From the IMG/VR virus record IMGVR_UViG_3300035158_000222, positions 35,955 through 99,954 of that record: a stretch of DNA of 64,000 nt; one strand, given 5' to 3'. Shown here in pieces: positions 19,301 to 64,000 of the stretch. The translations under genes were made by a program, and so were the position numbers. The notes beneath the pieces were generated by a model. It was given only the letters and a program-made list of their open reading frames with translations. It searched no databases and was not told the DNA's origin. The first letter of the stretch is position 1. Each line of letters starts with the position of its first letter. The stretch is from a virus.

Positions 19301-22300
19301 ATACAGACTGGTATTTTGTTCGATAAATATTTGTCCCTGCTTTGCCGCTAACTCCTTCGCAGGAATTTTTTCCGCTTCACTTTCGAGCCTGGCAAACTCT
19401 GCCTTATAGTCTTCTGCGAATTTAGCTATGTCTTTTCTCTGCTGCGTATTGCCATCGAAGTACATTCTAATAAGTTTATTCTCTATCTTGTTCGAGGTGA
19501 CATCGAAGGTTATGTCCCTATTAGCTTTTATATTCAGATCAATCTCATGAACAGCTTTCTCACTCGCCTTAGCAACATCATTGTAATTATCCATGGCACT
19601 CATCAGTTCCAGATCATTCTTATATTTAGCCAGCATTGATACTCTATTTTTTGCTTCTCTCTTCGCGACCTCTTCTATACCGGTAATACCGCCAGCTATC
19701 TCGTAGTCTCCATTAACAAAAGACTTCTTGATTTCCGGCAGAATGTCAGACTGGAACTCATGGATAAACACATCGTCCCCGATCTTAAACTCGGCATACC
19801 AACCAATACCATTGTATCGCTTCTTTGCCTCGCGGATACCAAACCTGTGGGCATTGGTTATAACTGCATCATCGACAAACAGCCTGCGCTTGTACTCTAT
19901 CGGAACCTTCTTCTTTTGTATATCTGTCATAGGCCCGATAGGAATAAGATTTTTAATTCCATACATTTCATGCCCAGTAACATCTACTACTCCAAGATCA
20001 TATCTTTGTCTCAGCCAATTTCTGTATGCATCGGCAAGCTCTGATGCTGGCATGGACTTTTCCTTGGTTGTCTCCAATAGATCCTTCCTGAATAATTCCA
20101 TGGCCTCAAGCTCGGCCTTCTTAATGCCCTCAAACTTAAATGGAGATGTAAGGGCTATGGCAGTGTCCGGCTTCTTCTCACCTAGCCAGTCTACAAATTT
20201 ATATTTAAGCTCGACAGGGTTCACTCTCTTAGATATGGCTTTCATGTCTGCGTCCTTTTGATTGAGCAGTTTTCTTTTTACTTTGAATCCGGAGAATGAT
20301 CCGTCAGTAAGGGCCCTGTCAAGATTGTCAACCGTTCTGGTTCTTGGATTATACGGACCCTGTGGCAGCACATACATTCTATCTACATACATATCTGCTC
20401 TCTGTTCAGCAGTAAGGTTGGTACCCAGCTCACGCTCTATAGCATCATCTACGGCAGAGTACTTTGCTGCATCGCCTATATCTACCTTACGTTTCTCGAG
20501 TGCAATAAGATTACCGATATCCTCCAGTGTAAGATCCGGCCTTAGTTCTCCTGGTCTGATCACTTCTCTCTTTCCAAACATAACATTAAAGTAATCGGCT
20601 ACTCTATCCAGGAGCTCTCTGACTTTACTAATGAGTCTTTGTCCCGTAGTAAGGGAGATTTTATCGGCAGCATACCTACCGATTGCCTCGGCAATACCCT
20701 CCTTATAGAAGTCTTCACTCCCGACTTTGATCTCAGGATACTTCTTCTCAATGTATTTAAGTATCTCGCCCTCGGTATCTAGTTCCTTCTTGAGGGCTTT
20801 ATAGAGATCAACATTCTCGCGAGAAATTACTTCTATGAATGGGTGAGCTATCTCATGGAATGGCGTTGAGGCCTTTGCGTAGGCACGGTTAATGTAGACC
20901 TGGCCATTTACGAATTGACCAGCCCATTTCATTTCCCTCCGATTAATTACTTTTACCTTCACGCCGAATCTGCTTGCGACTTGATAAGACGCACTGTCTA
21001 TCGCATACCTAGACATCTTCTTACCATAGGCCTGCTTCTCCAGCTTAGTCTTAGGCGGAGGGAGCAATAGAACCTCAGGCGGGGCCGGGTCTACGTTTAT
21101 TGTCTTGGGCCTTCTTGCTTCCGGATCTCTTACGAATCTAACTATATCAATAGCACCAAGTTCTTTCTTGGCGGCATAGAACGCAGCATTCCATTCCCGC
21201 AGCTTATCAAGATATTTCTCATAGGAAAGGATTTCTCTCGGGCTCTTGATATCTCTCAGCAGCGCTCCCACCTCTTCAGGCGTCAGCTTCTCGAACGCTT
21301 CCTCTCTGTCTACTTTATTTCTGTAGTCACGGGTCACGCGCTTACCACCGCTTCTCTCGCGTCTTAGTCTGGTTGCCTCGCGGGCTATACCCTCCTCAGA
21401 GAGTCCTACTAACATTCTTTGTTCTATATCCGATAGTTCAGTAAATTCCAACAGGAGCTCCATGGCAGTCTTAGTCTTCACGATGGATCCTGTCTCATCA
21501 CGTATACCTACAATCGGAGTAGCCAGAGCCTTCTCAAAGTTCCTTAGATAGTACTCAGGATTCTCTGCAGCCTTAACCGGATCAACAGACTGTGAGATCA
21601 GGTGGATAGAGTCATTGGCTCGGAACCCAGAACCGGCAGGAAGTCTGTCCTCCAGGATCGCATATACGATTGGATCATACGTTCCCTTGGCACGGAGCCT
21701 TTGCATGATCTCGGCAGATGTAAGAGTTTCTTCTATCTTAGCTTGAGGTGCAAGAACTTCGAAGTGTGTATCTTCGACAAAGCTCGGATGCTCTCTCATG
21801 TAATTGATAATGGCACGCTCTTCCGCGCTGTCACCAAACCACGCGAACTTCTTTCCATACCATGGGTTCGGCTTTCCCTTAGCATCAGTGGGATGCAGAA
21901 TAATCTCCAGCTCTCTCGCCAGCTCAGGAGTTACAAAGTAGTCCTCTGAGACATGCTTCTGCTTAGAGATTCTTCTATCTGGAGTTACTCTGTCGACGAA
22001 CTTAAGTTCGGGAACTGCCATCTTCTTTGCGTAGTCTTTGCCAACATCCTGGAGTTTTTTCCACTCTACTCTTTTGGCTTCGTATGCTTTCTGCCACTTA
22101 TCTATCGTGGCCTTGCTTCTCTTTTTCTTCTTGGCTATGTTTAGTTTCTCCTGAGTCACAAGCATATCTATCTTTGCCTGTGCCGCTCTTTGCTCCATTT
22201 CATTCAGCTTATCTATAACCGCTCTGTCTACAAGTCTGGGCTCAAGAACCTTCCAGACACGAGACCGCTGGTTATTCTCGAATACATCCTGCATGATCTT

Positions 22301-25300
22301 CGGGATAGATCTGGTTGTGGCACCGGGCTCCTTATCCATCTTCATTAGAATATCAAGGCCACCCTTTTGGATCTCCTTCGTGAACTTGTTGAACTTCTCC
22401 GTGAAGGCTTCCTTCGGGACCTTACGCCTCAGGATATAGGAAACTTGCTTGTTGAGTTTTCGCTCCGCGAACCAGAATTCATAATCATTCCATAGCTCAG
22501 ACATCTTGCGCACTTGTTCGTCAGTGTACTTCTCAAAGCTCCAGCCCTTGTTGCCCCCCTCCTTCTCGGGCACCATACCAGGCCATTCCTTCAGCTTATC
22601 CTTTAGGGTAGTGAATTGATTAGCATCTTTAGTCTTATTTAATTCGAATTTAGTATACAGAGCAAACTCCTTCTTGGTAGTTTCGTATAGGGCAGCGTCA
22701 GTTCTGGCCTTCAGGATATCGTCCCTTCTGGTAACAGCCCACATCGTACCAAGAGTATTGAAGTTTCTAAGTAGTTCGTTAATATTCTGATCAGTTAAAT
22801 ATCTACCTCTCATTATCATCTCTACGATATTGTACGGAGCCTTCGGGAAGAACGCTGGCTTGTCACCGCCAAGTTTCATCAGGAAGTATACCAGCTCATC
22901 AGCCGGGGTAAGTTTGAACGGGGCATCCGGTCTGTCTATCCAGATCTTCTTCTCCCTGTCCCACATCTTGGTAACCTGATACGATCTGTCTAGAACATTC
23001 CTTAGCTTCGCGTATAGGTTAGGATTAGTATAGTATAGATTTTCTAATCCGATAGCAGAGGAAAATACCAAGTCGACTTCGGGATCATACGGGGTGTACC
23101 TTCCTTCACCGATCTCATGAACACCGGTACGCTTCCACATTTCACGCACACCGGTCTTCGGATCTTTGATGCCGCCCTCGTAAGTTCTCTGTACAACATC
23201 CTGGATAGGATAAAGTTCGGACATTTGCTTTGTCCATACTACTTGCTTTTTATTTTTAACGACATCGAACTTGCCCAGTATGCTGGTAAGCTCTCCTCTC
23301 TGAGCGCTGTTCAGGAACTGATGGTACCACCCAACCTTCGGGTTTAGGTATGCTGTACGCAAAAGATTGTATACAACGACCGGCCCCATCTCACCTCTAT
23401 TCTTGGCAGCCTCAACATACTCGATAATAGTTTTGGTCTTACCCTTTGATGTGGCAGTAAGTTTCCTTGTCTTAGGATCGAATTGGAACTTCTGATTCTT
23501 CTCAAAGAACAGTGTCTTCCAGTTATCAGATATCTTACCTATCGTAAACCGTCTTGAGTTCTCTATCTGCTGCTGTGCAATAGCTGTGAATGCACCAAGA
23601 AGATCTCCGGACAATCCCATTCTTGTCTTTCTTGTACGTCTGTACATTACCCTGTACACGCCAGTATCAGGGTCCCTGAGGATCAGATTCTGATTATTTT
23701 TCCATAACGCCTGATCGTGTGGGTGAAGGGCACTGAAGTCGTCAGGAGTAATCCCGTAGAAGACAAAGTCATCAGTTACCTTTATCGGAACAGCCTGGTC
23801 TGCTTCAACCATTCTGCGGAAGAAGTCATCACGCTTCCTGTATATATCAGCAGCCTCAACAGCTCTGTCTATTGATCCATGATATTTCTTTGGATAGTCT
23901 TCATAGAGTTTCTTCTTAACCCTGTCCAGCTCTTCGGTTGTTTTAATCATACGTTCTCTTTTAATAACCTTACCGTCCTTGTCTACCTTCTCTATTACCC
24001 TGAACAGATCAAGTAATGCCTGTCGTCCAACCTTGTCCAAGTTTGCAACCTGCTCTCCATAGTAGACAAGTTCGAACCGCCCAAGGTTTCTGGATTCAAA
24101 TATCCTCTGCCTGAATTCTTTCAGGAAGTTGTCCGGAGACACTATTACTCCTACTCCTCGAGAGATGTTGTTCGGATCAAAGGCTTCACCATAAAGTCCG
24201 CGATTAAGTTCTACAACTTCATTGAACAAATCAGTATCAGCCTTGATCTCATCACTGACAAGATCCTTAAGTTTGGTCTTATCCTTCTTCACGAGAACTC
24301 TTTTGTAATAGGTCTCCGGGAACATTTGCATCAATCGTCTGATGTCCTCTGTCGCCAGGCCCATAGTTTCGTTGAATTTCCAGAAGACATCTTCAGCATC
24401 TGCGCTGGCTCTGATAGGATCTGCAACGTACTCCCTGAGATAGTTCTTTACCCTGGTGGCCGGGAGGTCGAATTCCCCGGATACCTTAGCCACTGCTTCT
24501 ATGAACTTAACTTCATTCTGCGCACGCAAAACTCCCAGCTCCTGATCGGTTAACTGGGTAATCTTTTTTCCTTTGTACGGAAGTAGTTTAGCTAGTGAGA
24601 TACCTCGCCACTTCATCGAAGCAACGGTTAAGGTATTGAGATTTATCTTATTGGGCTCAAAAGTTGTTAAGAGTTCACGGAATGTTGTCGCATCCTGCGG
24701 GGAGTAGAACCTCTCGGTCGGAACTTTCCCCTTCCGGATAACGTTATCCAGGCTCCAGATAAATTCGAATGTCCCGAGCGCGGCGCGCTTAAATCCTGTG
24801 CGCTCTGCATCGTCAAGAAGCTTGTATGCGATCTTCTGTCCCAGTGGTCTCATCAATCTTCTTGTCCCCCTACCAACCGGATACCACAATAGATCAATGG
24901 GGTCAGTCACAATCATCAAGGCTTCATCGAGAAGCTCAGTAAAAACAGGATAGTTGTTCTGCAACTTAACCCTGGTCTGGTCATTAAGTATGTTTAGGAA
25001 TGATATATCGTCCTCTCTTGTGATAGGAATCTTGATCTCTGTACCGGCCGGTATCTTTGTAATATCTTTGATTCCCATTGCATACAGGTCATTACGCATT
25101 TGAATATCAGCAATGATCTTCATTCTGTCAGGACCGGCAGGCACTATATCCATGAGGCTGCCTTCTTTTTCAAACCTATATTTAAACTCGTTGCGCGCGT
25201 CACGCATCCAGTTGTATGTCTTCTCCCAGTTCTTCATGATCTGCGGAACATCTTTAGCTCCTTTGTATAGCAGGATTTCTGTTCCTATCGGAATCTTATC

Positions 25301-28153
25301 AAAGTCTTTGATGTGAGGATTCAGTTTCTTAACGGCTTCTATCCGCTCCTCGGGTGTAGGCTCTACGAATCCGACAACGGCATCCAGGTCCCATGGATCC
25401 ATGAATGATTCTAGTGGACCCTCGAACTCTGTCACGATCTTTCTGTCGTCAAGCCTGCTCCAGAGTTGCTCCTGATCTACAGTATGGTCGGGATAATTCA
25501 ACCATCGTCTTACCATCCGGATAGACATTAGTGCCTTGTCTATGGGCCCTGCATCGTCAGGCTCCATAATAACCTGGCCAAGTTTAAATTCATTCGGCAT
25601 ACCAAGAGACTTCATCTTCTTGTTAAGGAAGTTATCGGTCTCCATACCGATCCACTGCAGGAAGTTTTCGAATTCATTTACTGTAGCTAGCGTGGCTGGC
25701 CAAGCCTCTTTGAACAGGAGATTGTTATACTTCATTAGACCTTCGAATACGACCTGTGACGGTTTCCATTTGACTTCCTTGCCGGTAACCTTACCCCACA
25801 ACTTTCTTGGTCCCCAGGTAATGCCATCCGCAGTATATAGCGGAGCCTTAATGTATGGAGATATAATAACCGCATCGAATAGAGCCCAGGCTCTGCTACC
25901 CAACAGATCATATGTCAGACGTGCTCTTGATGGAGCCTCCCTATATGCCTCAATGATGCTGGTCGGCTTTACTAACCTTGCCTTCTCGAATGCCGCATGT
26001 TGCTTAGATTCATTATTTAATTCTTCGATCTCCTGGAATTGTCTTGCCCTGGCTTCCATCTCATTGGCTTCATCTATCTTCTTAAACGAATCAAGCAGCT
26101 TATTATAGAACCGGTCCAGTTCCTCGTTATATGATTTAAGTTCATTGTCATATTGCTCCTGGAGATCGGTAAGCTTTTGATTATCTGTCTGGACTCTTGA
26201 GTAGTTGTTTCTGATCCAGGATTCATTCTCTCTATATGAGGCTGCTATCTTCTGTGCATTGCTAAGCTCTCCGGCATTCATGATCTTACCTGCGATAACC
26301 GCATCCTGGAATGTAGGATTATTAACAAGGTCTTCAAGCCTTGGTCCGATATTATTCAGGATGGTTTCCTTCACATTGATTCTCTCTGCTATCTTATTTC
26401 CTTTTGTTACTTCGAGATTATATTTATCTAGAGTGCTGTGAAACTTTTGGGCCAGATCGTTGATCTTGATTATCCTATCCCTGTTCAGCATCCCATATGT
26501 CGTATGTGTCATCTGTTCGAACTCTGTCATCGCATCGAATCTGTAGCTATCCTCGATATACTTGTCCATCTCAGGATCAATCAATGAGTCAAGCTCTGCC
26601 TTCTGATCCAGCATCTCGTCCATCATCTCGTCAGCAGATTTAGACACGTCATCAAATTCGCTGGTAAGTATCTTAACTTCTTCCGATGTGGCAGATATAT
26701 CCGATAGGGATTCTGCGATATCGCCCATCTCTGATATCGTCTCTTCGATCACGCGGTGCTTCTCTTCGGGCACAGTGGTAAGGTCCAGCTTATACATCTT
26801 ATCCGTAGCATCCCTGGATAGCTGCAGGAGATCGGCTATATCATTGAACTTCCGCGTAGTTCTGTCCTGCACCTGGTATAGCGGGCTATCTTCCGGAAGG
26901 GCAAACATCTCTGCTTTCCTTTCCATTTCTTTTAATGCTTCCTCTCCCATCTTTTCCATGTCATATAGGGGCCTTCCTTTCTCATCTATCGGAATTGCAA
27001 TCCCAAGCTTCTTGGCTTCTTCAAGTGCTGGGCCTCTAAGCCAATCGAACTCAGCCTGTCGTGTTGACTCGGCTTTCTGCTGTTCTATCTCAAATGCCTT
27101 AGGGGCTGTGGTCTTTCTGATTCTCTGTACCTCTCCCTTCTGGGATACAAGAGTAAAATCATATTGGTTGTATATATCGAGAACCTCTTCGTAGCCCTTG
27201 CCCTGTTTGATTGCTTCATCGATTCTATCTTTCAGTTCTTCAATCTTCTTATCGGTTACTGGCTTGTTTAGGAAGTTCTTAACCGCATCGTCTATTCTAA
27301 CTTCCTCCTCGGCATCAAGCATAGTCTTAACTGCATTACCGAATCCCTTGCGGATCTTGTCCTGGACCGTTGCCTCTGGGGCATTGGTTCTGATACCGAT
27401 GCTCGGAAAATAAGTGTTTGTTACAGGAATAAAGTAGTCGGTCATTCCTTCTCTGATTTTTTGTTTAAGACCTTCGAACTTCTTTGCATCTTCCGGGGCC
27501 TTGGGTTGGAAGAATTCATCGAATCTCTCTCCGAGTTTATCCATCTGTTCGGTCACGTCTACTCCGAATATACTAAAAAAAGACCTGGCCTCGTCCGGTT
27601 CAGGGACGGGTTCAGGTCTCTTTTCGGGAGCCCTTGGTCTAAGCTCTGGGGGAACTTCAGCTTCTGGAATGATATCTACTCTGGGTTCGGGAACTTCCGG
27701 CTCTACAACTTCCACCTCTACAGCCTCTGGAGGAGGTACAATCTCCACCTTGGGCTCTGGAATTTCCGGCTCAACTACTTCTACTTTCGCCTCTGGGAAC
27801 TCGGGTTCAACAACCTCTACCTTTTGCTTCTTGGCTAGGTAGCGTTCGTATGCGCCTTCTTCGCGCCATTCTTTCCCCAGGTCTTTATCGATTTGTTCGT
27901 CTGCTACGTTTGGGAAACGTGCCTTCACTTCGTTCCATACCGGACCCCAGTCAACTCCTGTTTGCAACTTTCGTATACCCTCTTTGATAGCATCATCGTA
28001 TTGAGTGGCCGGGACAACAACCTCCTGCCCTACTTTAATCACATTGGGATCTGTTATGTCTTTATTCAGTTGAAGGACAGTGTTAAGATCCGACCCATAT
28101 TGTTTTGCAATATTGGTCAAAGTCTCGCCACCTTTAACGACATGGCGTATCAT
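10322..28153 (-). CDS. giant (5943 aa) LysM-containing polyvalent probable internal virion / ejection protein
   Basis: Uninterrupted 17.8-kb ORF. N-terminal LysM (HVVKGGETL..IAKQYG...LN.DI.DPNVIKVGQ), VEVVEPE repeats, further LysM-like half motifs, TPFHEIAHPF zincin motif, IHEFQSD motif, helical C-terminus. Confidence 0.85.
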   Translation of the reverse strand: MIRHVVKGGETLTNIAKQYGSDLNTVLQLNKDITDPNVIKVGQEVVVPATQYDDAIKEGIRKLQTGVDWGPVWNEVKARFPNVADEQIDKDLGKEWREEGAYERYLAKKQKVEVVEPEFPEAKVEVVEPEIPEPKVEIVPPPEAVEVEVVEPEVPEPRVDIIPEAEVPPELRPRAPEKRPEPVPEPDEARSFFSIFGVDVTEQMDKLGERFDEFFQPKAPEDAKKFEGLKQKIREGMTDYFIPVTNTYFPSIGIRTNAPEATVQDKIRKGFGNAVKTMLDAEEEVRIDDAVKNFLNKPVTDKKIEELKDRIDEAIKQGKGYEEVLDIYNQYDFTLVSQKGEVQRIRKTTAPKAFEIEQQKAESTRQAEFDWLRGPALEEAKKLGIAIPIDEKGRPLYDMEKMGEEALKEMERKAEMFALPEDSPLYQVQDRTTRKFNDIADLLQLSRDATDKMYKLDLTTVPEEKHRVIEETISEMGDIAESLSDISATSEEVKILTSEFDDVSKSADEMMDEMLDQKAELDSLIDPEMDKYIEDSYRFDAMTEFEQMTHTTYGMLNRDRIIKINDLAQKFHSTLDKYNLEVTKGNKIAERINVKETILNNIGPRLEDLVNNPTFQDAVIAGKIMNAGELSNAQKIAASYRENESWIRNNYSRVQTDNQKLTDLQEQYDNELKSYNEELDRFYNKLLDSFKKIDEANEMEARARQFQEIEELNNESKQHAAFEKARLVKPTSIIEAYREAPSRARLTYDLLGSRAWALFDAVIISPYIKAPLYTADGITWGPRKLWGKVTGKEVKWKPSQVVFEGLMKYNNLLFKEAWPATLATVNEFENFLQWIGMETDNFLNKKMKSLGMPNEFKLGQVIMEPDDAGPIDKALMSIRMVRRWLNYPDHTVDQEQLWSRLDDRKIVTEFEGPLESFMDPWDLDAVVGFVEPTPEERIEAVKKLNPHIKDFDKIPIGTEILLYKGAKDVPQIMKNWEKTYNWMRDARNEFKYRFEKEGSLMDIVPAGPDRMKIIADIQMRNDLYAMGIKDITKIPAGTEIKIPITREDDISFLNILNDQTRVKLQNNYPVFTELLDEALMIVTDPIDLLWYPVGRGTRRLMRPLGQKIAYKLLDDAERTGFKRAALGTFEFIWSLDNVIRKGKVPTERFYSPQDATTFRELLTTFEPNKINLNTLTVASMKWRGISLAKLLPYKGKKITQLTDQELGVLRAQNEVKFIEAVAKVSGEFDLPATRVKNYLREYVADPIRASADAEDVFWKFNETMGLATEDIRRLMQMFPETYYKRVLVKKDKTKLKDLVSDEIKADTDLFNEVVELNRGLYGEAFDPNNISRGVGVIVSPDNFLKEFRQRIFESRNLGRFELVYYGEQVANLDKVGRQALLDLFRVIEKVDKDGKVIKRERMIKTTEELDRVKKKLYEDYPKKYHGSIDRAVEAADIYRKRDDFFRRMVEADQAVPIKVTDDFVFYGITPDDFSALHPHDQALWKNNQNLILRDPDTGVYRVMYRRTRKTRMGLSGDLLGAFTAIAQQQIENSRRFTIGKISDNWKTLFFEKNQKFQFDPKTRKLTATSKGKTKTIIEYVEAAKNRGEMGPVVVYNLLRTAYLNPKVGWYHQFLNSAQRGELTSILGKFDVVKNKKQVVWTKQMSELYPIQDVVQRTYEGGIKDPKTGVREMWKRTGVHEIGEGRYTPYDPEVDLVFSSAIGLENLYYTNPNLYAKLRNVLDRSYQVTKMWDREKKIWIDRPDAPFKLTPADELVYFLMKLGGDKPAFFPKAPYNIVEMIMRGRYLTDQNINELLRNFNTLGTMWAVTRRDDILKARTDAALYETTKKEFALYTKFELNKTKDANQFTTLKDKLKEWPGMVPEKEGGNKGWSFEKYTDEQVRKMSELWNDYEFWFAERKLNKQVSYILRRKVPKEAFTEKFNKFTKEIQKGGLDILMKMDKEPGATTRSIPKIMQDVFENNQRSRVWKVLEPRLVDRAVIDKLNEMEQRAAQAKIDMLVTQEKLNIAKKKKRSKATIDKWQKAYEAKRVEWKKLQDVGKDYAKKMAVPELKFVDRVTPDRRISKQKHVSEDYFVTPELARELEIILHPTDAKGKPNPWYGKKFAWFGDSAEERAIINYMREHPSFVEDTHFEVLAPQAKIEETLTSAEIMQRLRAKGTYDPIVYAILEDRLPAGSGFRANDSIHLISQSVDPVKAAENPEYYLRNFEKALATPIVGIRDETGSIVKTKTAMELLLEFTELSDIEQRMLVGLSEEGIAREATRLRRERSGGKRVTRDYRNKVDREEAFEKLTPEEVGALLRDIKSPREILSYEKYLDKLREWNAAFYAAKKELGAIDIVRFVRDPEARRPKTINVDPAPPEVLLLPPPKTKLEKQAYGKKMSRYAIDSASYQVASRFGVKVKVINRREMKWAGQFVNGQVYINRAYAKASTPFHEIAHPFIEVISRENVDLYKALKKELDTEGEILKYIEKKYPEIKVGSEDFYKEGIAEAIGRYAADKISLTTGQRLISKVRELLDRVADYFNVMFGKREVIRPGELRPDLTLEDIGNLIALEKRKVDIGDAAKYSAVDDAIERELGTNLTAEQRADMYVDRMYVLPQGPYNPRTRTVDNLDRALTDGSFSGFKVKRKLLNQKDADMKAISKRVNPVELKYKFVDWLGEKKPDTAIALTSPFKFEGIKKAELEAMELFRKDLLETTKEKSMPASELADAYRNWLRQRYDLGVVDVTGHEMYGIKNLIPIGPMTDIQKKKVPIEYKRRLFVDDAVITNAHRFGIREAKKRYNGIGWYAEFKIGDDVFIHEFQSDILPEIKKSFVNGDYEIAGGITGIEEVAKREAKNRVSMLAKYKNDLELMSAMDNYNDVAKASEKAVHEIDLNIKANRDITFDVTSNKIENKLIRMYFDGNTQQRKDIAKFAEDYKAEFARLESEAEKIPAKELAAKQGQIFIEQNTSLYRRNEAGKNIIKWLEKHKLTSDLIAGAKDKGIFSRIDSVYKYEPEARGDLNATILGIAELNSKLDAGKLKTMPRLGELSKLRKKQFGPHDPMADYVLAFVEEQSKRLGTDTTTGKLLYDLDRKYYKNIVDLNANFKAGRTLKVKIGRLEFKRGLYKNLDSAKKIIDYYQGQEKRYRTTFMDILSNKAVKGRKIADYDVYKRYADLYDSWFDITIRHALYNKKAEGYRSVYLPTGKASDLIEGNSLASKLYYTVEESAELNYKHFGREIWDMMRGHKINIGEFGKQFLEKQVPPAERALYKAYAAWQDAHGGIDELRKFGMLADVVDSTATIFSGILSGEIKSSLPEGKAFSKLLQREHSNWVNGRGDYVGPRKKTVDLRTGKETMETKPDIANPGVFYTKLKKIKGAKVSFETPRWSRTPLIRVDLDDMTDGPIPRFQKMIDDVGENPSAMERIKKKKIVKKGDEYRKRQLAISREKFDDWEWKVTRRPSEDAKAAAEVSKLNQVGGNVIGKHLLSKSAREAFKPKKLPKAIRDFSAEELVKNLGVAFDVANKIGPDDLARWVNDKSDKADYRKQIKGLNDQLEDLSNQTRKIERDYEKRINGEYKVIEDGQALYNRQREKAKKMIDKEKDPKARAGMRKIVAESAIEFTVKRKQIRDGIDILKKERDAKIKKLDKKVDEVSTDLAAVENRMRHDMSVERFLLTGDTPDGKIVDKDGNINTTIARHVYDELDREIKRVQDSMKRQEKTLRTGDPDIDYNDILFNYRTNQEALVRLKAIKKSVIPMAVARHNHIPIPIDGVYWADKGHITPEMGAAMGALHNAIADMGDKLLTREGLKEIGVPTVTHPTTEVPRITAADIKKQFYDKLPSAKDLGQIKIMKADIVQVGNARSMTEVHAAIKGLFRKTGREKDFPVVFDMSGTLKETLDSFRKDLERRSTRMVGAQKEELIRQANEVRGYIKNMTVIVDPDFHPDNLGRILVGEGFGMNDVEARAVTKMVDKMKERGAIWIFGESSELASPWHLKNSMYGKGMLPEDRAMHNLMREDFDQIVRAAADPKPGFPGHFPVDPDSFASEFFGVDKKGNITIDSLLESRPQIAERSARDMALAGLEADMIRHNVGVGEAADYKKFVRGSNILVVGGRSTFLNPDQRKAIMYGYNNGTRFVFNGVKMMPGEKAVFEFVSSLPNSKVAFMSFNEKNIMAIRNGNPVKISMRDPKLKKTVTKAKHVDLMFPTTRQFRTKAMRDLYEKFSLPGTVNILKHEELIKAKLRQELQESVSKWMGDPNKFPPWFITDKMNMYHNSYFQKPIKDIMVDWASIKGRQELKEKFDKGIDSAMKEYRDEIRKGFMEQNNGKPLLDWQERLIDEHHRQAIEISKNIKRYVFKFDMPSRLIESFKRKMANHMFYLHERQRQEFDDTFNGIHEQLVGEVPRNLRYYERANKLFLKTLPDVNQVQKTIRRTAFSTFIWSVLMLRPGWLLWNYLGDSMRVIMGTRNVRLFIDISRLQAEATALRMKKHLINVREFTKLMIGKEADIGVYNLEAYLKAKKDSRSIPGMLRSKRVRKAYMESIKPRNKNLVNEAIELGDWESITSAGLVQYLADPKKAEGHVRVLRDYMDSEPLNNFVVARKTARKLKLAGRVFFADYVSMAAQLENMRRVIMAHDLMYRKAFNKAKTEIKVKKFLYDYRDLTLAGRFFRTFFPFYAFTAKSIGLYLGAMIKYGPGVYQASNALLDAYDKLSADMPDQFKERVPFGDKIWVLPHFGVLEYLRVIVDPFESLKKFADNPLKMSFALGWGPFFAGGIELVGKRGFHETGPLMRDFGKYGWFAEEQRRYKERDASRFTDELTYSDEPSALVTFMMAYLPPLRVMESIFETDYAVQLRGTAWYNSKKVRAIFKWFGLNYLELEDVAFVWDSLNKLPPHERDLFKRSLEAENPDLWKYFQQYNMLLQMDRINKAKGKSKEQKIYDLHKFIVIQVYFEKEWEKDGSGDVWLAQNPDIKHIVEKHFDDLEKQYGITSKQILGKRKFEMAQVEASIRKMLTTTRDVDQNKIARMNLAGISHPFKKPFKEAELRAELFDKFGNLKVKNIDEVVKILEKYDAIVTFLDPQIYKEEAEVDYQRWQALGLEAQEQARDEDARFYGRMSLVFATLPDNLDELPDEEANKYWDKYNKRLEDLILSIPKWKQRYLDEMPPWQREYYEKRVQYGNWWGEMIQRIEREEDTDFFNWFNAKPGWFRKWYYLSNPDARLYFPLVQETNIRRQKIVDTQDKTGFDPADWKGLYDYIWKNQNALKAWDRRRPGTYNYYDKLKQLYDGLTKAREVDDSTIYFDLFFQKKGNKGWDDFREFYFSKEHNTWKRITYPYVRTWLELQKRDEENELLTGKRTNLATVWFWSEKNKKARETYHENKKIDGVHSVVDYQRVWKDAADKFEKDPGIIYQFVYDQEEWFRNRYFDIHPDRKVYYPMALKMQEFEEFQDRLGYFFKAENKTQRDAWERDKPGIVGYYKFWYDHNNIKEKDGRAAALEFYFSDANKDYRLRHDSANPGAIEAYTLWKQYEAIDRESWEGRKERREFLRENPKLREWWDRDKDISEEEVAFNLQREIYYTIIDKVEADGKGRQYYLDYFEARAKAQKYFDDNPEFEQWFKSDREITRTPKQQAMDTLMEQYNALDYDSERREFLLEHEDLDRYLLLQVPPGIRRIRLLQRAYFKIEHEDSDKQYELRQTFLDRYPELEEYWEVSKMPTSYWTDRSKFDTTRNKFSKAEKFFEAVEQKQWRSAEKFKDLLPAVPDTRTEEGRWLLNKLYGRAMSTWATTFGTFMSTYYFKMLPSWLRNEYFKRHPEKKFLSYLSLGRQMEEGLRIEDNKRPDQAWAVRQQNKFRKNIPFDIKKQVEDILVKRGTWQDRSVWTDAQWDQWWEARIARVNALRQKDLEELPLLRSELLRVMRRYPLSTLPKPLKGWGDVNPFIVTNVIAFTNEEFSNTLEDRKVLTRVPERAKI

Positions 28154-58936: not shown

Positions 58937-59204
58937 CTATCATGATGACGATAGACTTATCGTCTTTAAATTTGTTAACCATATCATTGTAGGAAACAAG
59001 TGCATCCATGATGTTATCATAGTTCAAATGCTCCGCAAGAGGAAGAGAATGTACTCCGTCATAGCCATAGGCGTAGACGTTATACTCTGTCTTGCCCTTC
59101 AGGGAAATTGATTGAGTCATTGCGACTCTTACCTTGTTTCCCTTGCTTGCCAGGCTCTTGAAGTCCTGGTATGTTATTGTTTCTTCGACGTCTTTGAATG
59201 ACAT
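58884..59204 (-). CDS. hypothetical protein (EALV-motif paralogue family)
   Basis: NYDNIMDALVSYN matches NYRNIIEALVKFE of 41042-41404. Confidence 0.6.
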   Translation of the reverse strand: MSFKDVEETITYQDFKSLASKGNKVRVAMTQSISLKGKTEYNVYAYGYDGVHSLPLAEHLNYDNIMDALVSYNDMVNKFKDDKSIVIMIDGNKSQEQKGKGTTGPL

Positions 59205-59561
59205 GTAGTTTCCTTTTGATACGATAGCGCTCGGCCCTATCTGCCTGATGCTTCCTTTTCTTCCGTGTTCCCCAGCCGTCGCCTTTTTTGTATGACTTAG
59301 TTGAAAATGCCATATGAATTGGGGAAAAATTTGCTCACCCAGTGACACTTCCTTAATAGGCGGTATGGGTGGGTGTGTTTAGAGGCAACGAACTTAAGTT
59401 CGTGTGTGCCTTTTGCTTAACATGAGCCATAGACAGCGTCATCCGGTAGGATTAAGAATTAGAGGATGGGCTGACGAACCATGGGCTGGCTAGGCTCTAC
59501 ATGGTATTTCGGCGGTGCTCCTAATGGAACCCTATGGCAGTGTGTTGCTGCGCTTGCCTTA

Positions 59562-59657
59562 GACTGAAAGTGGGATTCGAACCCACGTTCCCGCCGGTTG
59601 CTGGTTCAATAACCGAGCGTTCCTTGCGGAGTCCTTACCGACTAGACGATTTCAGTC
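59562..59657 (-). ncRNA. atypical tRNA-like RNA with an expanded anticodon arm
   Basis: Acceptor (G)ACTGAAA/TTTCAGT(C), D arm, T arm GTGGG-TTCGAAT-CCCAC; CCGC/GCGG encloses 31 nt. Confidence 0.65.
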
Positions 59658-59704
59658 TGCTCACCCTAACTGAATAGAGCGGGCATCGTTTTCCCAAACG
59701 AGTG

Positions 59705-59776
59705 AGCATGTACAGGGAATCGAACCCTGCCCCTCTGGTTGGAAGCCAGACGTGCCGCCGTCAACACCTCACATGC
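59705..59776 (-). tRNA. tRNA-Gly(TCC)
   Basis: TCTGG-CT TCC AA-CCAGA, full cloverleaf. Confidence 0.9.
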
Positions 59777-59843
59777 GTTTATGACAGAGGTACTGTGGAA
59801 TACCCGGGTTCGCCACAAGCACTCGAGCCTCTCTCCTGTCCGG

Positions 59844-59915
59844 AGCCTCTAGTAAGAGTCGAACTCACGTCAACGGATTACAAATCCGCCGCTCTGCCAA
59901 TTGAGCTATAGAGGC
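59844..59915 (-). tRNA. tRNA-Thr(TGT)
   Basis: GCGGA-TT TGT AA-TCCGT. Confidence 0.9.
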
Positions 59916-60011
59916 TTATGTTCCTTCCTGTGACAGTCGGAACATAGTATAATACATTTCTTTATTTCTTCCATGATTCTTTCTCGTCCCCATCCAAGCC
60001 TTCTCGCATAG

Positions 60012-60215
60012 TTAGCAGCAGTCGCTCTCGTATCTCTTTTTAAAATGCTTTTTACGAACGACTTCGAAGTCTCTCATGCGTCCGTGTTCGTTAGTGACAT
60101 GGCTAGAGTAGTCATATGGACCATTCTCACCAGCATCATAAATGACACCTAGATAATCTTCTAGGTCTCGTACTCTTTGTAAGAGTTTTTTGTACTTGCT
60201 TTTTCTTCGGAACAT
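60012..60215 (-). CDS. hypothetical protein
   Basis: 67-aa ORF between tRNAs. Confidence 0.5.
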   Translation of the reverse strand: MFRRKSKYKKLLQRVRDLEDYLGVIYDAGENGPYDYSSHVTNEHGRMRDFEVVRKKHFKKRYESDCC

Positions 60216-60249
60216 AATGGCTGATACTCAATTATTATGTTAATAAGTG

Positions 60250-60323
60250 TCGGAGAGGTCGGATTCGAACCGACGACCTTACGGACCCAAACCGTACGCC
60301 CTACCAGACTAGGCCACACTCCG
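60250..60323 (-). tRNA. tRNA-Pro(TGG)
   Basis: TACGG-TT TGG GT-CCGTA. Confidence 0.9.
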
Positions 60324-60433
60324 AGGCTTTTCAGAGGACCATTCCTGCTTTTGTTTGCCTTCTTCCCATGTAGTAGTGCACCACATACCGGCCCTCTTAA
60401 CGTATTTAATTTTAGGTTTTCTTTTAATCATAG

Positions 60434-60507
60434 TTGGAACGGTAGGATTTGAACCTACGACTACACGGATATCAGCCGTGCGCTCTACCGGGCTGAGCTA
60501 CGCTCCA
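60434..60507 (-). tRNA. tRNA-Ile(GAT)
   Basis: CACGG-CT GAT AT-CCGTG. Confidence 0.9.
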
Positions 60508-60513
60508 TGGTAG

Positions 60514-60585
60514 TTCAGGAGGTAGGATTCGAACCTACGATCTTCTGGTCCAAAGCCAGATGACTTGCCGCTTGTCCACTCCTGA
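60514..60585 (-). tRNA. tRNA-Gln(TTG)
   Basis: TCTGG-CT TTG GA-CCAGA. Confidence 0.9.
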
Positions 60586-60591
60586 GTGCAG

Positions 60592-60666
60592 CCGAGAGAG
60601 TAGGATTCGAACCTACGACATCCGGTTTAGAAGACCGGTGCTCTATCCGGGCTGAGCTATCCCTCG
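60592..60666 (-). tRNA. tRNA-Arg(TCT)
   Basis: CCGGT-CT TCT AA-ACCGG. Confidence 0.9.
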
Positions 60667-60741
60667 TGGAAGCGACAAGGGGAATCGAACCCCTGCTTGC
60701 AAGGATGAAAACCTTGTGTCCTACCATTAGACCATGCCGCC
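60667..60741 (-). tRNA. tRNA-Glu(TTC)
   Basis: CAAGG-TT TTC AT-CCTTG; encoded CCA. Confidence 0.9.
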
Positions 60742-60747
60742 ATACTG

Positions 60748-60821
60748 TGGACAGTGCGGGAATCGAACCCACGACCTCCGGCTTGCAAAGCCGATGCTCT
60801 ACCAGCGTGAGCTAACCGCCC
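60748..60821 (-). tRNA. tRNA-Ala(TGC)
   Basis: TCGGC-TT TGC AA-GCCGG; G3-U70 pair. Confidence 0.9.
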
Positions 60822-60827
60822 TAGATG

Positions 60828-60900
60828 CTCCTAGGGCTGGGCTCGAACCAGCGGCCTCCTGGTTAACAGCCAGGCGTTCCACCAACTGAACTACCTAGGA
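60828..60900 (-). tRNA. tRNA-Asn(GTT)
   Basis: CCTGG-CT GTT AA-CCAGG. Confidence 0.9.
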
Positions 60901-61088
60901 TTATCCTTGTGTTTTATATAAAAACCAACAGCAAGAATTCCTACTATCATACCTATTAAGAATATTGATATATCTACGATTAAGTCCATAGGAAGTTCTA
61001 TTGTATATTGATTAATTTTGTATATGGTCCTCTCACAATTTTCCATAGTTTCTATGTCATATGCCCGAGTACGGGGATTTGAACCAAG

Positions 61089-61160
61089 CGCCTCAAGGGA
61101 GAATCGAACTCCCAGCACCTGGTAGACAGCCAAGTATGTTAGCCATTACACCATTGAGGC
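61089..61160 (-). tRNA. tRNA-Asp(GTC), nested replacement copy
   Basis: CTTGG-CT GTC TA-CCAGG; its 5' end overlaps the endonuclease stop codon. Confidence 0.88.
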
Positions 61161-61598
61161 TTTCCATCTGTATATAGTATTGTAGGATACGTTAATCTCT
61201 TTGCCTATTTCTCTATATGATAATCCCTTATTTAATAATTTATCTATTTGTTTTCCTCTCTTAGTATATTCTACTTCAGCTGCTTTGATGTCATGCTCTC
61301 TATCTTTAAGAATATTAAGCGCAGTTATAGCTTCTTGTTTCTTAACTTTCAAATGAGGAATTATCATTTCAAGAAATAGTATAAGATCTGATGACTTACT
61401 ATGATAATATGTCCATGCTTGCTTCCAATGTTTCTTTCTAGTCTTTACCTTAGTTATACCGCCATAGCCTAAGAACTCTTTGATCTCATTTAGTATTTCT
61501 TTATTTGTCTGTGATATCTGTATTCTAAATCTTTTGTTTCTTGCTCTAGTAATAGTACCTTCACCATCAAAGAATCCAGCTAAATATTGTATATTCAT
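61146..61598 (-). CDS. free-standing LAGLIDADG homing endonuclease with C-terminal HTH
   Basis: YLAGFFDGEGTI, ISQT, IIPHLKVKK, LSYREIGKEINVS. Confidence 0.92.
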   Translation of the reverse strand: MNIQYLAGFFDGEGTITRARNKRFRIQISQTNKEILNEIKEFLGYGGITKVKTRKKHWKQAWTYYHSKSSDLILFLEMIIPHLKVKKQEAITALNILKDREHDIKAAEVEYTKRGKQIDKLLNKGLSYREIGKEINVSYNTIYRWKASMV

Positions 61599-61672
61599 AT
61601 ATTCGTAGTTAATCCCCCGGATCTCCTGCGTGACAGGCAGGCGCTTTGAACCTGACTAAGCTACACCCGGTC

Positions 61673-61748
61673 TGGTGTCCCGGGCGGGAATTGAACCCGC
61701 TGCGCCTAGGGCTTCAACCTAGCGCTCTACCGGTGAGCTACACGAGAC
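61673..61748 (-). tRNA. tRNA-Phe(GAA)
   Basis: CTAGG-TT GAA GC-CCTAG; encoded CCA; one bulged nucleotide in the acceptor stem. Confidence 0.85.
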
Positions 61749-61828
61749 ATGTGGAAGGGGTAAGGAGATCACCTTCCACGGAGCAGTCTCTGAAAAGAGA
61801 CCGCGAAAACACCTTATCTATAAATGAA

Positions 61829-62182
61829 AGAACAAAGTGCAAGCGAGGTGGGATTACCATCACCCACAATCCTCGACGTACTATCAGCTTTTAGATTTGA
61901 GCCATCCATAGGCCCACCTATGGACTGCTGCCCTTGCCGTACGTGGCTTCTTGGGCAATCCGTACCACGGCGGCAGAGTTCTGGCCGAGGCCTTCGACCT
62001 TCCTCCACGTCCGTTCACGTTACGGAGCCAGATTCAGTTTATTTGCTGGCACTTTGCAACCAGTAGGTACAGTAATATTCTGCGAGAATGCACGCTAGCC
62101 CCTTTCTCACCTGTCGGGCGTCGCGCCGCACTAGGCCCTGATTCCTACAACCTTATTATGCGACTCACCTGCACTTTGTTCT
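61829..62182 (-). ncRNA. large multi-stem structured ncRNA candidate
   Basis: 13-bp terminal stem AGAACAAAGTGCA/TGCACTTTGTTCT enclosing many hairpins. Strand inferred from the flanking tRNAs. Confidence 0.7.
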
Positions 62183-62188
62183 CTATTG

Positions 62189-62260
62189 GGTGTCTAGAGA
62201 GAATCGAACTCTCGTTGACGGGGCCACATCCCGCTGTTCTACCATTGAACTATAGACACC
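62189..62260 (-). tRNA. tRNA-His(GTG)
   Basis: GCGGG-AT GTG GC-CCCGT; G-1:C73. Confidence 0.9.
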
Positions 62261-62265
62261 GTAGT

Positions 62266-62342
62266 TGGCACCGGGTCCGGGTGTTGCGCCCGGTACTTCG
62301 GTTTTGGAGACCGATGTGATAGCTGTCGTTCACCAACCCGGC
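62266..62342 (-). tRNA. tRNA-Trp(CCA), non-canonical T loop
   Basis: TCGGT-CT CCA AA-ACCGA; T loop CGCAACA; encoded CCA. Confidence 0.8.
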
Positions 62343-62348
62343 TTGTTG

Positions 62349-62419
62349 AGCTCTGGGTCGGGGTCGAACCGACGATTGATGGTCTGCAACCACCCGCCTT
62401 ACCACTTGGCCACCAGAGC
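62349..62419 (-). tRNA. tRNA-Cys(GCA)
   Basis: GGTGG-TT GCA GA-CCATC; U73. Confidence 0.9.
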
Positions 62420-62472
62420 CTGTGGGCCGGGTAGGACTCGAACCTACGATATCCCTGAGGGAGCCGGGACTG

Positions 62473-62555
62473 TGGGCAGTGAGAGAGTCGAACTCCCTGA
62501 GCCCGAAGGCAACTGGTTTACAGCCAGCACCGCTACCCCTACGGATTAACTGCCC
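62473..62555 (-). tRNA. tRNA-Tyr(GTA), nested replacement copy
   Basis: GCTGG-CT GTA AA-CCAGT, long variable arm; its 5' end overlaps the HNH stop codon. Confidence 0.88.
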
Positions 62556-63012
62556 TTGTTTGAGAGTGACAGTTTGGACAAAGTATCTGTAAGTTTTCAA
62601 GTCTGTTATCTGTATGATCCTCATTAAGATGATGAAGATGTAGTACTAGTTTGTTCTTATTCCAGATATTAGATTGTCCGCACTTTTCACACTCTTCTTT
62701 CTTTAGCTTGAACTTATATAGCTTTTCTTTAATCCTGTGACTTTTCCATCCAAGACCATTCTTGCATAATACATATTTCTTGAATGTTTCTACAGTATGT
62801 TCATTAGTTACATTTGCTTTGGTTGATGACCATCCACGTTTCTTGAAGTGAGAGGTATTTATTCCACATTCCTTGATGCGTTTGCATATCAAGTTATGGC
62901 TGCCACCTCCGACCCTTAGGCCAAGCTCTCTTACTATATCTGCTACGTTATTATGTTTGTTAACAAGCTTGGTTAGTAATTGCTTGGTATATTTTGATGA
63001 TCCTTTCTTCAT
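62539..63012 (-). CDS. HNH homing endonuclease
   Basis: CEKCG...W....LVLHLHHLNEDHTDNRLENLQILCPNCHSQT. Confidence 0.92.
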   Translation of the reverse strand: MKKGSSKYTKQLLTKLVNKHNNVADIVRELGLRVGGGSHNLICKRIKECGINTSHFKKRGWSSTKANVTNEHTVETFKKYVLCKNGLGWKSHRIKEKLYKFKLKKEECEKCGQSNIWNKNKLVLHLHHLNEDHTDNRLENLQILCPNCHSQTRAVNP

Positions 63013-63116
63013 AAGTTCTAAGTTAACCCGGAGTAATTGCCGCTATACGACCGACCCATTATAAAGCCTACTGGTTACACCAGTGATGATGGCTATAATA
63101 ATGTTGTCGGCTAGTA

Positions 63117-63470
63117 TTACGCATAGTTCATGGGTAGTTCGTACGGGTATGTCTTGCCAGGTTTTTTGCCCCTGTCAAGAAGATATACGAACTCTATATT
63201 ATATAATTCTGTTAAAGATTCTCTTAGTGTCCGGTAGGGAGCAATGGCCGCAATGATCACACTCTTCTTCTCTTCAACGCTGATCCTATAGGCCTCACGC
63301 CCGATCTCCAGGCAGTTAAGATACCGGCCGTTCTTAGACATATCACGGTTCTTTGTCTTTTTCCGGAAGTCGTCGCCGTCTATGATGACTGAATCGGGTA
63401 TTAATTTCGCTAGCTTCCGGGACAATGTTGTCTTACCGGAACCGCTATTACCTGTTATCCATAGGATCAT
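63117..63470 (-). CDS. adenylyl-sulfate kinase-like P-loop kinase
   Basis: ILWITGNSGSGKTT, IDGDDFR, IAPYR.LR. Confidence 0.75.
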   Translation of the reverse strand: MILWITGNSGSGKTTLSRKLAKLIPDSVIIDGDDFRKKTKNRDMSKNGRYLNCLEIGREAYRISVEEKKSVIIAAIAPYRTLRESLTELYNIEFVYLLDRGKKPGKTYPYELPMNYA

Positions 63471-63471
63471 A

Positions 63472-63806
63472 TTATTGGTTATACTCGACTAATCTAGCTA
63501 TCCACTGTTTAAATTCTCTATAGCTGTAAGAGTGTTTCGCTCTGTTGCATATAATACACGCGGTAACACAGTTGCTTTTAATATAGCCGAGTTTATTATT
63601 TACCCTATCGATACCATTATATGTAACGTCTTTGCCACCTGGATACTTTCTTTTAAGGGTTTGCCATGGCTGGCATCCACAATAATGACATGGTAGAGAT
63701 ATTAGTAATTTGAATCTTTCAAGGTATGGTCCTTGGCACTATCAGTCTTACTCAAGACTACCCAGTGCCCGAACTTCATCTTCTTTATATTTCTTAGCTT
63801 TGGCAT
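63472..63806 (-). pseudogene. internally deleted / frameshifted HNH endonuclease
   Basis: N-terminal MPKLRNIKKMKFGHWVVL in one frame. CHYCG...NGIDRVNNKLGY..SNCVTACIICNRAK lies in another frame, preceded by stops. Confidence 0.7.
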
Positions 63807-64000
63807 TTCTGATTCTTGTTCCAGATATAGATTCAAGCTCCGGTGATAGTCTGATTTGATGATAAGAATAGCCCGGGGTTCGTCCGACTACTACGCCCTC
63901 TATATCGGGAATAGTTATTATCTTTAATAAATTGTTTCCTCCAAAGGCCTTGCGTACCATCTTCTTTCGTTCCTTGTATGTATGCGGATTATCTTTGCTC
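63748..64000 (-). CDS. C-terminal part of a cytidylyltransferase-like nucleotidyltransferase (5' end outside window)
   Basis: SKDNPHTYKERKKMV...IPDI..VVVGR.PGY...ISGTRIR. Confidence 0.65.
   Translation of the reverse strand, partial: SKDNPHTYKERKKMVRKAFGGNNLLKIITIPDIEGVVVGRTPGYSYHQIRLSPELESISGTRIRNAKAKKYKEDEVRALGSLE

Follow-up and report, generated by a model that had tools for sequence, protein, structure and literature searches.

In phages T4 and T6, SegB is a free-standing GIY-YIG homing endonuclease encoded in a tRNA gene cluster (PMC2330249; PMC13096335). The site of SegB, 27 bp in length, contains the T-psi-C stem-loop motif, and the enzyme cleaves tRNA genes at their 3' end; during homing, the neighbouring tRNA genes are carried along and displace the tRNA genes of the recipient (PMC2330249), and the co-localisation of SegB with tRNA genes is widespread (PMC13096335). 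Herein, we describe a related situation in a stretch of viral DNA of 64,000 nucleotides (hereafter, the window), which covers positions 35,955 to 99,954 of the IMG/VR record IMGVR_UViG_3300035158_000222. In the tRNA array of this window, which reads on the minus strand, a resident tRNA-Asp(GTC) gene is interrupted by an insert containing a gene for a LAGLIDADG endonuclease with a helix-turn-helix domain (LAGLIDADG-HTH) and a second, complete tRNA-Asp(GTC). In our overall reading, a selfish cassette of about 530 bp, composed of the leader, the nuclease gene and a complete tRNA-Asp of foreign sequence, was probably copied into the T stem of the resident tRNA-Asp.

Similar to the phage cassette, segB is an intron-less nuclease gene in a phage tRNA array, and its T-arm site represents a precedent for the break described here. 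However, segB lies between intact tRNA genes and splits none of them, and encodes a GIY-YIG enzyme, whereas LAGLIDADG-HTH and HNH enzymes are encoded in the present array. Moreover, segB has neither a same-isotype tRNA fused to the nuclease open reading frame (ORF) nor relic tRNA halves, and the phage cassette has both. Group I introns in the anticodon loops of bacterial tRNA genes, such as tRNA-Leu(UAA) and the tRNA-fMet with I-Ssp6803I (PMC3984707), likewise allow a homing-endonuclease gene to occupy a tRNA gene, but in these introns self-splicing undoes the harm, whereas the phage cassette has no ribozyme, breaks the T stem and carries a complete tRNA in place of the intron core. LAGLIDADG insertions in the rRNA genes of Patescibacteria have been described in a report in which tRNA is not mentioned (PMC11270868). 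Islands and prophages of the integrase type also target tRNA genes and compensate with carried sequence; however, the integrase and a displaced 3' segment rebuild the same gene at attL, whereas the cassette has no integrase, leaves the old gene split and supplies a different tRNA in full. In Aeromonas phage Aeh1, mobE reportedly splits nrdA, and the two protein halves reassemble; this resembles the cassette in that a nuclease gene sits in an essential gene with neither an intron nor an intein around it, while for the cassette the function presumably comes from a spare cargo gene. To our knowledge, homing endonucleases have been thought to persist in essential genes only inside self-splicing introns or inteins. 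Literature searches revealed no description of nuclease-plus-spare-tRNA cassettes, and T4 SegB was the closest known system. The present locus contributes a lineage of LAGLIDADG-HTH enzymes, insertion in the T stem, a pair of cassettes built on the same frame within a single array, and a connection between a phage cassette and a large tRNA-His-linked family of ultra-small bacteria.

Interruption of the resident tRNA-Asp gene

The features of the Asp cassette are listed below in the direction of transcription.

61670-61615, minus strand: 5' part of the outer (resident) tRNA-Asp(GTC), from direct reading and a partial Rfam match
61614-61599, minus strand: left junction and 16-nt leader GATTAACTACGAATAT ahead of the ATG; the first G belongs either to the tRNA or to the insert
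61598-61146, minus strand: homing-endonuclease gene, an ORF of 150 aa with a LAGLIDADG core, a long helix and a helix-turn-helix
61160-61089, minus strand: nested complete tRNA-Asp(GTC), from ARAGORN and Rfam (56.1 bits)
61088-61064, minus strand: right junction (CTT, then GG) and 3' part of the outer tRNA-Asp, from sequence and a unique pattern match

The outer 5' part comprises the acceptor strand CCGGGTG, the D arm, the anticodon arm CCTGC-CTGTCAC-GCAGG, the variable region AGATC and the 5' strand of the T stem, CGGGG. Taken alone, it scores 26.5 bits against the Rfam tRNA model (61616-61670) and shows 86% identity over 50 nt to the tRNA-Asp of Gordonia phages, and the outer tRNA-Asp looks conventional in sequence. 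The 3' part (61083-61064) continues the same molecule with the T loop TTCAAAT (61083-61077), the T-stem strand CCCCG, the acceptor strand TACTCGG and the discriminator G (61064), and the two halves pair with each other at 5/5 positions of the T stem and 7/7 positions of the acceptor stem, including two G-U pairs. ARAGORN reports a tRNA-Asp(GTC) for the joined halves; as 2% of random 3' pieces pass as well, this program was dropped as the only test of the rejoined tRNA, being too lenient, and an explicit pairing pattern was therefore counted instead. The pattern, a TTC.A.. loop with 5/5 and 7/7 pairing, has exactly one match on both strands of the 100-kb genome, and the expectation from shuffled genomes is 4.3 per genome for the stems alone and approximately 0.02 when the loop motif is added. 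The split of the tRNA-Asp is real, and the resident gene is physically interrupted. The initial annotation of this DNA had described a break in the T stem by about 530 bp with GG at both junctions, and both the direct reading and the pairing statistics bear this out. The run of G residues, GGGGG on the left (61618-61614) and GG on the right (61085-61084), leaves the position of the junction ambiguous by 2-3 nt.

The insert of about 530 bp is fully assigned to the 16-nt leader, the 150-aa ORF, the complete tRNA-Asp(GTC) and a spacer of 3 nt. The stop codon TAA of the ORF (61148-61146) corresponds to positions 13-15 of the nested tRNA-Asp, so that gene and tRNA overlap by 15 nt. The end of the nuclease ORF extends into the nested tRNA, so that both belong to a single compact transcription unit within the tRNA array. 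The outer and nested tRNA-Asp are identical at 41/76 positions (54%), and no close match was found for the nested sequence. Thus, Pfam, ARAGORN, Rfam and the 41/76 identity confirm the proposed composition of the insert, i.e. a LAGLIDADG-HTH ORF and a complete but divergent tRNA-Asp(GTC) with the stop codon inside the 5' end of the tRNA. The replacement tRNA, which had been termed an isoacceptor, is indeed present, although the term is loose, as both tRNAs carry the GTC anticodon.

Intron and splicing tests

With Rfam, no Intron_gpI or other intron match was observed at E<=1 in the region 59000-64000, nor was an intron matched at the gathering threshold over the whole window; as a positive comparison, Intron_gpI was obtained at 61.4 bits in L182, one of the loci of HNH relatives considered below. 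There is no room for a ribozyme core because each base of the insert is already assigned, which agrees with what had been noticed from the sequence at the outset. Furthermore, the base ahead of the 5' junction is G, where group I introns have U. A group I intron in the tRNA-Asp was rejected for want of free sequence and of an Rfam match and in view of the G as the last exon base. An intron of the archaeal type, with a bulge-helix-bulge (BHB) and enzymatic re-ligation, seems improbable as well: the BHB was not seen in the minimum-energy folds of the insert junctions, and RtcB, a PF09414-type RNA ligase and a tRNA_int_endo splicing endonuclease were not found in the phage record (IMG/VR, linear, approximately 85% complete). 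A search with PF09511 gave no match in the phage, but the controls of this search gave none either, and the result is uninformative. A tRNA-targeting integrative element was also rejected, as the insert has no integrase ORF and the outer gene is not restored. In other words, nothing recognisable in the insert or in the phage genome record appears able to rejoin the split tRNA-Asp, and the nuclease ORF, lying outside any intron or intein, is free-standing.

The LAGLIDADG-HTH endonuclease

The 150-aa protein matched LAGLIDADG_3 (2.4e-10) and HTH_38 (1.9e-7), among others, in Pfam. The domain layout comprises a single-motif LAGLIDADG core of the I-CreI type (residues 1 to approximately 100), a long helix and a C-terminal helix-turn-helix (approximately 117-146); sequence matches in the PDB were I-MsoI and I-CreI, and the helix-turn-helix matched WhiA. 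The LAGLIDADG motif, with its metal-binding acidic residue, lies in YLAGFFDGEG at residues 5-14. Within this stretch, A7, G8, F9, D11, G12, E13 and G14 do not vary among 34 relatives and show 98-100% conservation when 67 are compared, and Q30 and K86 are invariant or nearly so across the 34-67 relatives. An AlphaFold2 model built from the alignment of 34 relatives (predicted local distance difference test, pLDDT, 95.7) shows an alpha-beta-beta-alpha-beta-beta-alpha core (H3-13, E14-19, E23-30, H33-43, E47-50, E62-66, H69-82), followed by the long helix and a three-helix end. The top Foldseek matches of the model were I-CreI, I-CvuI and I-MsoI, with E values of 4e-8 (I-CreI) to 6e-6; for matches at 4e-8 to 5e-7, approximately 110 residues were aligned at 3-4 A with 23-26% identity.

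These results indicate that the protein is, as modelled, an I-CreI-type endonuclease with an added DNA-binding domain, encoded by an intact gene. The enzyme is presumably dimeric and, judged by its motif residues and predicted fold, looks catalytically competent. The phage enzyme shares the fold and the catalytic motif with I-CreI, I-MsoI and I-CvuI; however, these three enzymes are encoded by group I introns in rRNA genes and have no C-terminal helix-turn-helix, whereas the phage enzyme has one. A compact I-CreI-type enzyme with an extra helix-turn-helix represents a candidate for a new natural specificity.

A second cassette in the same array

Another insert of the same layout was observed in the tRNA array, with the features listed below.

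63057-62423, minus strand: the second cassette as a whole, from sequence
63057-63025, minus strand: 5' part of an outer class-II tRNA, from sequence
between the outer 5' part and the HNH ORF, minus strand: 12-nt leader, from sequence
63012-62539, minus strand: HNH ORF, 157 aa, from a Pfam HNH match
62555-62472, minus strand: nested tRNA-Tyr(GTA), from ARAGORN and Rfam, overlapping the end of the HNH ORF by 17 nt
approximately 62471-62423, minus strand: outer 3' part, with anticodon-stem strand, long variable arm, T arm, acceptor and A73

The outer parts of this tRNA pair at 7/7 positions of the acceptor stem and 5/5 positions of the T stem, and the pattern match is unique in the genome. The long variable arm and A73 would suit either isotype, Tyr or Leu; wherever the junction is placed, a plausible anticodon loop of 7 nt does not result. 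The two cassettes lie approximately 900 bp apart and encode unrelated nucleases, and they have a frame in common, namely a break, a short leader, an ORF, a complete tRNA with the stop codon of the ORF in its D loop, and then the remainder of the broken tRNA.

A 17-nt motif, TTAACT-NN-GAA-NN-TATG, occurs twice in the genome when both strands are considered, and only at the 5' junctions of the two cassettes. It lies right at the breaks (61599-61614 and 63013-63029, minus strand) and might act in expression, in processing or as a joint for recombination. The TTAACT of the leader was also considered as a -10 promoter box and rejected, as it matches at 3/6 positions and has no A2.

Relatives of the LAGLIDADG-HTH enzyme

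A protein search revealed few near relatives of the LAGLIDADG-HTH enzyme, the two closest of them with 45% identity, and a profile search for the family yielded 52 clusters with E<=1e-30, a number that rises to 1548 with E<=1e-10. The loci of relatives were obtained from pattern scans, 80 from JGI metagenomes and 67 from GTDB species genomes. Full-length relatives (35-47% identity) were mostly found in Patescibacteria, including Saccharibacteria, Nealsonbacteria, Falkowbacteria, Paceibacterota and others. At 65 loci, a tRNA-His(GTG) on the same strand comes after the nuclease gene, the stop codon being located 2-25 nt ahead of the tRNA or, at 11 loci, inside it (overlap of 15-23 nt). The 5' half of a different tRNA-His is present upstream at several loci (L003, L012, L027/L095, L085, L089, L091, L093 and L097), and all of these halves terminate at ...TGTGG, i.e. 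at position 37 of the anticodon loop. A relic of a T arm and acceptor directly follows the complete tRNA at others (L004, L028, L043, L096 and L110). The outer halves occur in all stages of decay, and three decayed copies of the nuclease gene itself were observed. The gene was present in 1/81 genomes sampled from one order, a patchy distribution, as expected for a mobile gene. For the family-level relatives of one Patescibacteria carrier, the DNA is too diverged to align across the possible empty site. The locus with the best local identity (L114, 58%) was considered as a related phage and rejected, as it is a decayed copy in a bacterial genome of approximately 0.9 Mb.

From the arrangement of these loci, the family behaves like a mobile nuclease that moves together with a tRNA and inserts into, or beside, tRNA genes of matching isotype. 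The phage enzyme belongs to this lineage and differs in being tied to Asp in place of His and in sitting in the T stem, not in the anticodon loop. In 47/65 of the tRNA-His-linked loci (L002-L042, L082-L111), an inverted repeat, GTGG-N30-55-CCAC, surrounds promoter-like boxes (TTGACA/TATAAT) and sits 40-100 nt upstream of the nuclease start; only 6-8 nt separate the promoter from the ATG, and the mRNA may thus be leaderless. At some loci, TGTGG is all that survives of the former tRNA-His anticodon loop, and it forms the left arm of the repeat. This repeat is a possible operator for the helix-turn-helix domain; the phage copy has neither the inverted repeat nor the promoter.

Relatives of the HNH enzyme

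For the HNH enzyme of the second cassette, 252 relatives were found in IMG/VR, and 78/80 of the loci kept lie in tRNA arrays. Approximately 20 of them are located inside a phage tRNA-Leu(UAA) that is split between U34 and A35 by 670-930 bp, which is the classical site of the tRNA-Leu group I intron, as listed below.

tRNA-Leu(UAA) split by an HNH insert: L151, L155, L158, L159, L161, L163-L168, L171, L182, L185, L190, L192, L193, L202, L207, L215

In L182, the Intron_gpI match lies between the ORF and the 3' exon, and no match at E<=0.01 was obtained for the others searched. At 17 further HNH loci, a complete tRNA lies within 40 nt downstream or overlaps the ORF, with an overlap of 18 nt in L170 and L197, and relic tRNA-Leu 5' halves are present upstream of the HNH gene in L178, L179 and L200. 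The full nested layout was observed in an unrelated IMG/VR phage (L169), which carries an outer 5' part, the HNH gene, a nested tRNA-Cys, and an outer T arm with acceptor. Because split genes of the L182 type coexist with units of the L169, L178, L179 and L200 type, a single HNH family appears to occur both with an apparent intron and in an intron-less form with a spare tRNA. Endonuclease ORFs next to or overlapping tRNAs with relic halves, for which the initial annotation had envisaged a survey, were thus encountered among both the LAGLIDADG-HTH and the HNH relatives.

The tRNA arrays of phages with HNH relatives also contain tmRNA genes, one of them permuted (L159:803-1340, L197:1473-1869 and L202:1375-1630).

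Proposed mechanism and alternative explanations

Herein, we propose a mechanism by which such a cassette could spread and persist. In a mixed infection, the nuclease would cleave tRNA-Asp alleles that lack the insert, within or close to the T arm. The break would then be repaired with the genome carrying the cassette as template, the tRNA halves and the neighbouring tRNA genes providing homology, and the nuclease gene and the spare tRNA would be copied together. The nested gene may escape cutting, as about half of its T-arm positions differ. The outer pieces would represent a dead relic, and a young one because all stems are still perfect, while the nested tRNA would now supply Asp decoding for the phage. 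Moreover, because the stop codon sits inside the tRNA, processing of the nested tRNA by RNase P might cut the nuclease message and leave it without a stop codon, thereby acting as a brake that keeps nuclease output low. An insertion with a compensating cargo tRNA is, in our judgement, rather likely; whether the T arm was broken by the LAGLIDADG-HTH nuclease itself is close to an even question, tilted slightly towards the negative. The initial annotation had regarded the locus as a further strategy of homing endonucleases, in which the target allele is destroyed and a linked replacement is supplied, and this interpretation is supported in part by the anatomy of the insert, the intact nuclease, the recurrence of the layout (in the second cassette, in L169 and at several of the approximately 65 tRNA-His loci), the patchiness of the family and the SegB precedent.

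Several observations weigh against this reading. A dimer of the I-CreI type would prefer a palindromic site, but no palindrome is centred on the insertion junction, and LAGLIDADG enzymes leave 4-nt overhangs, with which a G repeat of 2-3 nt is at odds. A purine at position 37 is nearly universal in tRNAs. In the nested tRNA, the anticodon loop (61124-61130, minus strand) reads CTGTCTA, with U at position 37, whereas the outer loop reads CTGTCAC; this U37 is rare, so that the nested tRNA-Asp is a putative functional tRNA. Among the relatives, most Patescibacteria loci have no matching 3' relic, and insertion into a tRNA is directly visible in a minority. In addition, the source is a metagenome-assembled contig estimated to be approximately 85% complete. 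Related phages with an uninterrupted tRNA-Asp, to which the initial annotation had looked for a comparison, were not found: exact-pattern scans of IMG/VR matched neither the T-arm junction as rejoined nor the 5' half of the outer gene nor the nested tRNA, and as no relative of the phage was found in the collections searched, there is no empty-site allele for comparison.

The junctions are also compatible with an accidental capture, in which the nuclease is an ordinary free-standing enzyme encoded between tRNA genes with its target elsewhere, a break of any origin in the tRNA-Asp was patched by illegitimate, microhomology-mediated copying of a nuclease gene and the next tRNA from another phage, and the nesting is a scar. 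The mere 2-3 nt of G microhomology and the non-palindromic site fit with this explanation, as do the dragging of neighbouring tRNA genes in homing of the SegB type (PMC2330249) and the general enrichment of nuclease genes in tRNA arrays (PMC13096335), which is also observed for the HNH relatives herein. However, we consider such an accident unlikely, since the nested layout occurs twice in one array with a common frame and leader, the relic and the nested tRNA agree in isotype both in the Asp cassette and in the tRNA-His loci of the candidate phyla radiation, and the relic tRNA-His 5' halves end at one nucleotide, where accidents would scatter. The second cassette, the tRNA-His family and the HNH relatives together seem to make this arrangement a design rather than an accident. 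A chimeric contig, in which foreign sequence was placed in a tRNA gene during assembly, might be suspected for any viral contig assembled from a metagenome, but is extremely improbable here: both flanks continue one tRNA in register, an independent second cassette of the same frame lies nearby, and similar layouts of nuclease and tRNA were observed in many independent assemblies.

The perfect stems of the outer tRNA might instead indicate that the insert is removed or bypassed in the RNA, through an unrecognised intron, host enzymes or a split tRNA acting in trans, and that the outer tRNA-Asp is still made. The fold of the whole precursor, still closed by the outer acceptor and T stems, is consistent with this possibility, as is the location of HNH relatives in tRNA-Leu(UAA) at the classical group I site, one of them with an Rfam intron match. 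Nevertheless, no sequence is left for a ribozyme, no Rfam intron was matched, the 5' junction base is G, the junction folds have no BHB, searches of the phage for RtcB, a PF09414 ligase and a splicing endonuclease were negative, and the outer halves of the relatives are at all stages of decay, which together render repair at the RNA level very improbable. The protein itself could be a domesticated WhiA-like regulator of the downstream tRNA and not an active nuclease, as its C-terminal helix-turn-helix matches WhiA and an operator-like repeat is present in 47/65 related loci; regulation would then account for its linkage to tRNA genes. This is quite improbable as well, considering that no variation is seen in the metal-binding acidic residue, Q30 or K86, that the distribution is very patchy with decayed copies and relic tRNA halves, and that the phage copy has no repeat or promoter. 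Moreover, autorepression by a homing endonuclease, such as that of I-TevI, is compatible with nuclease activity.

If the selfish-cassette reading is true, a gene-breaking cassette that brings its own replacement would represent a different solution to the occupation of essential genes. Such cassettes would account for odd pieces of tRNA and for isotypes present in duplicate, in the tRNA arrays of phages as well as in ultra-small bacterial genomes, and nucleases of this type would drive the replacement of tRNA genes and the horizontal transfer of tRNAs. More tentatively, and with somewhat more doubt than confidence, we suggest that a spare tRNA as cargo might be a general third way into essential RNA genes, beside self-splicing and intergenic parking, which would be interchangeable with group I introns in the same nuclease lineages. 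One LAGLIDADG-HTH lineage would then serve this way in Patescibacteria (tRNA-His) and in a phage (tRNA-Asp), and the overlap of the stop codon with the tRNA would tie the dosage of the nuclease to tRNA processing. The hypothesis is directly testable in vitro because the locus defines both the substrate and the enzyme.

Other features of the phage genome

The terminase of the phage has no close kin in IMG/VR and shows approximately 25% identity to the terminases of Bacillus and Staphylococcus myoviruses. The occurrence of the nuclease relatives mostly in Patescibacteria hints weakly at the host of the phage. An ORF of 5943 aa is located at 10322-28153 of the window (minus strand).

Within the tRNA array, a GC-rich stretch of 439 nt (61749-62187, minus strand) with no convincing ORF lies between tRNA-His and tRNA-Phe. 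Its folding energy is -166 kcal/mol (z = -4.8 relative to 100 shuffles), with a closing stem of approximately 20 pairs, and the stretch matches no Rfam family at E<=1; the predicted fold points to a structured RNA of no Rfam family. Further along, ARAGORN reports a tRNA-Phe(GAA) of 97 nt (59561-59657, minus strand; Rfam 43.6 bits), and a normal tRNA-Phe(GAA) is also present at 61673-61748; the approximately 20 extra nucleotides of the former may represent a long arm or a small intron, or the isotype may be miscalled. At the other end of the contig (G000:C1:1024-1261), three tRNA-Leu genes (TAA, TAG and CAA) of 75 nt lack the long variable arm that tRNA-Leu of the bacterial type usually has.

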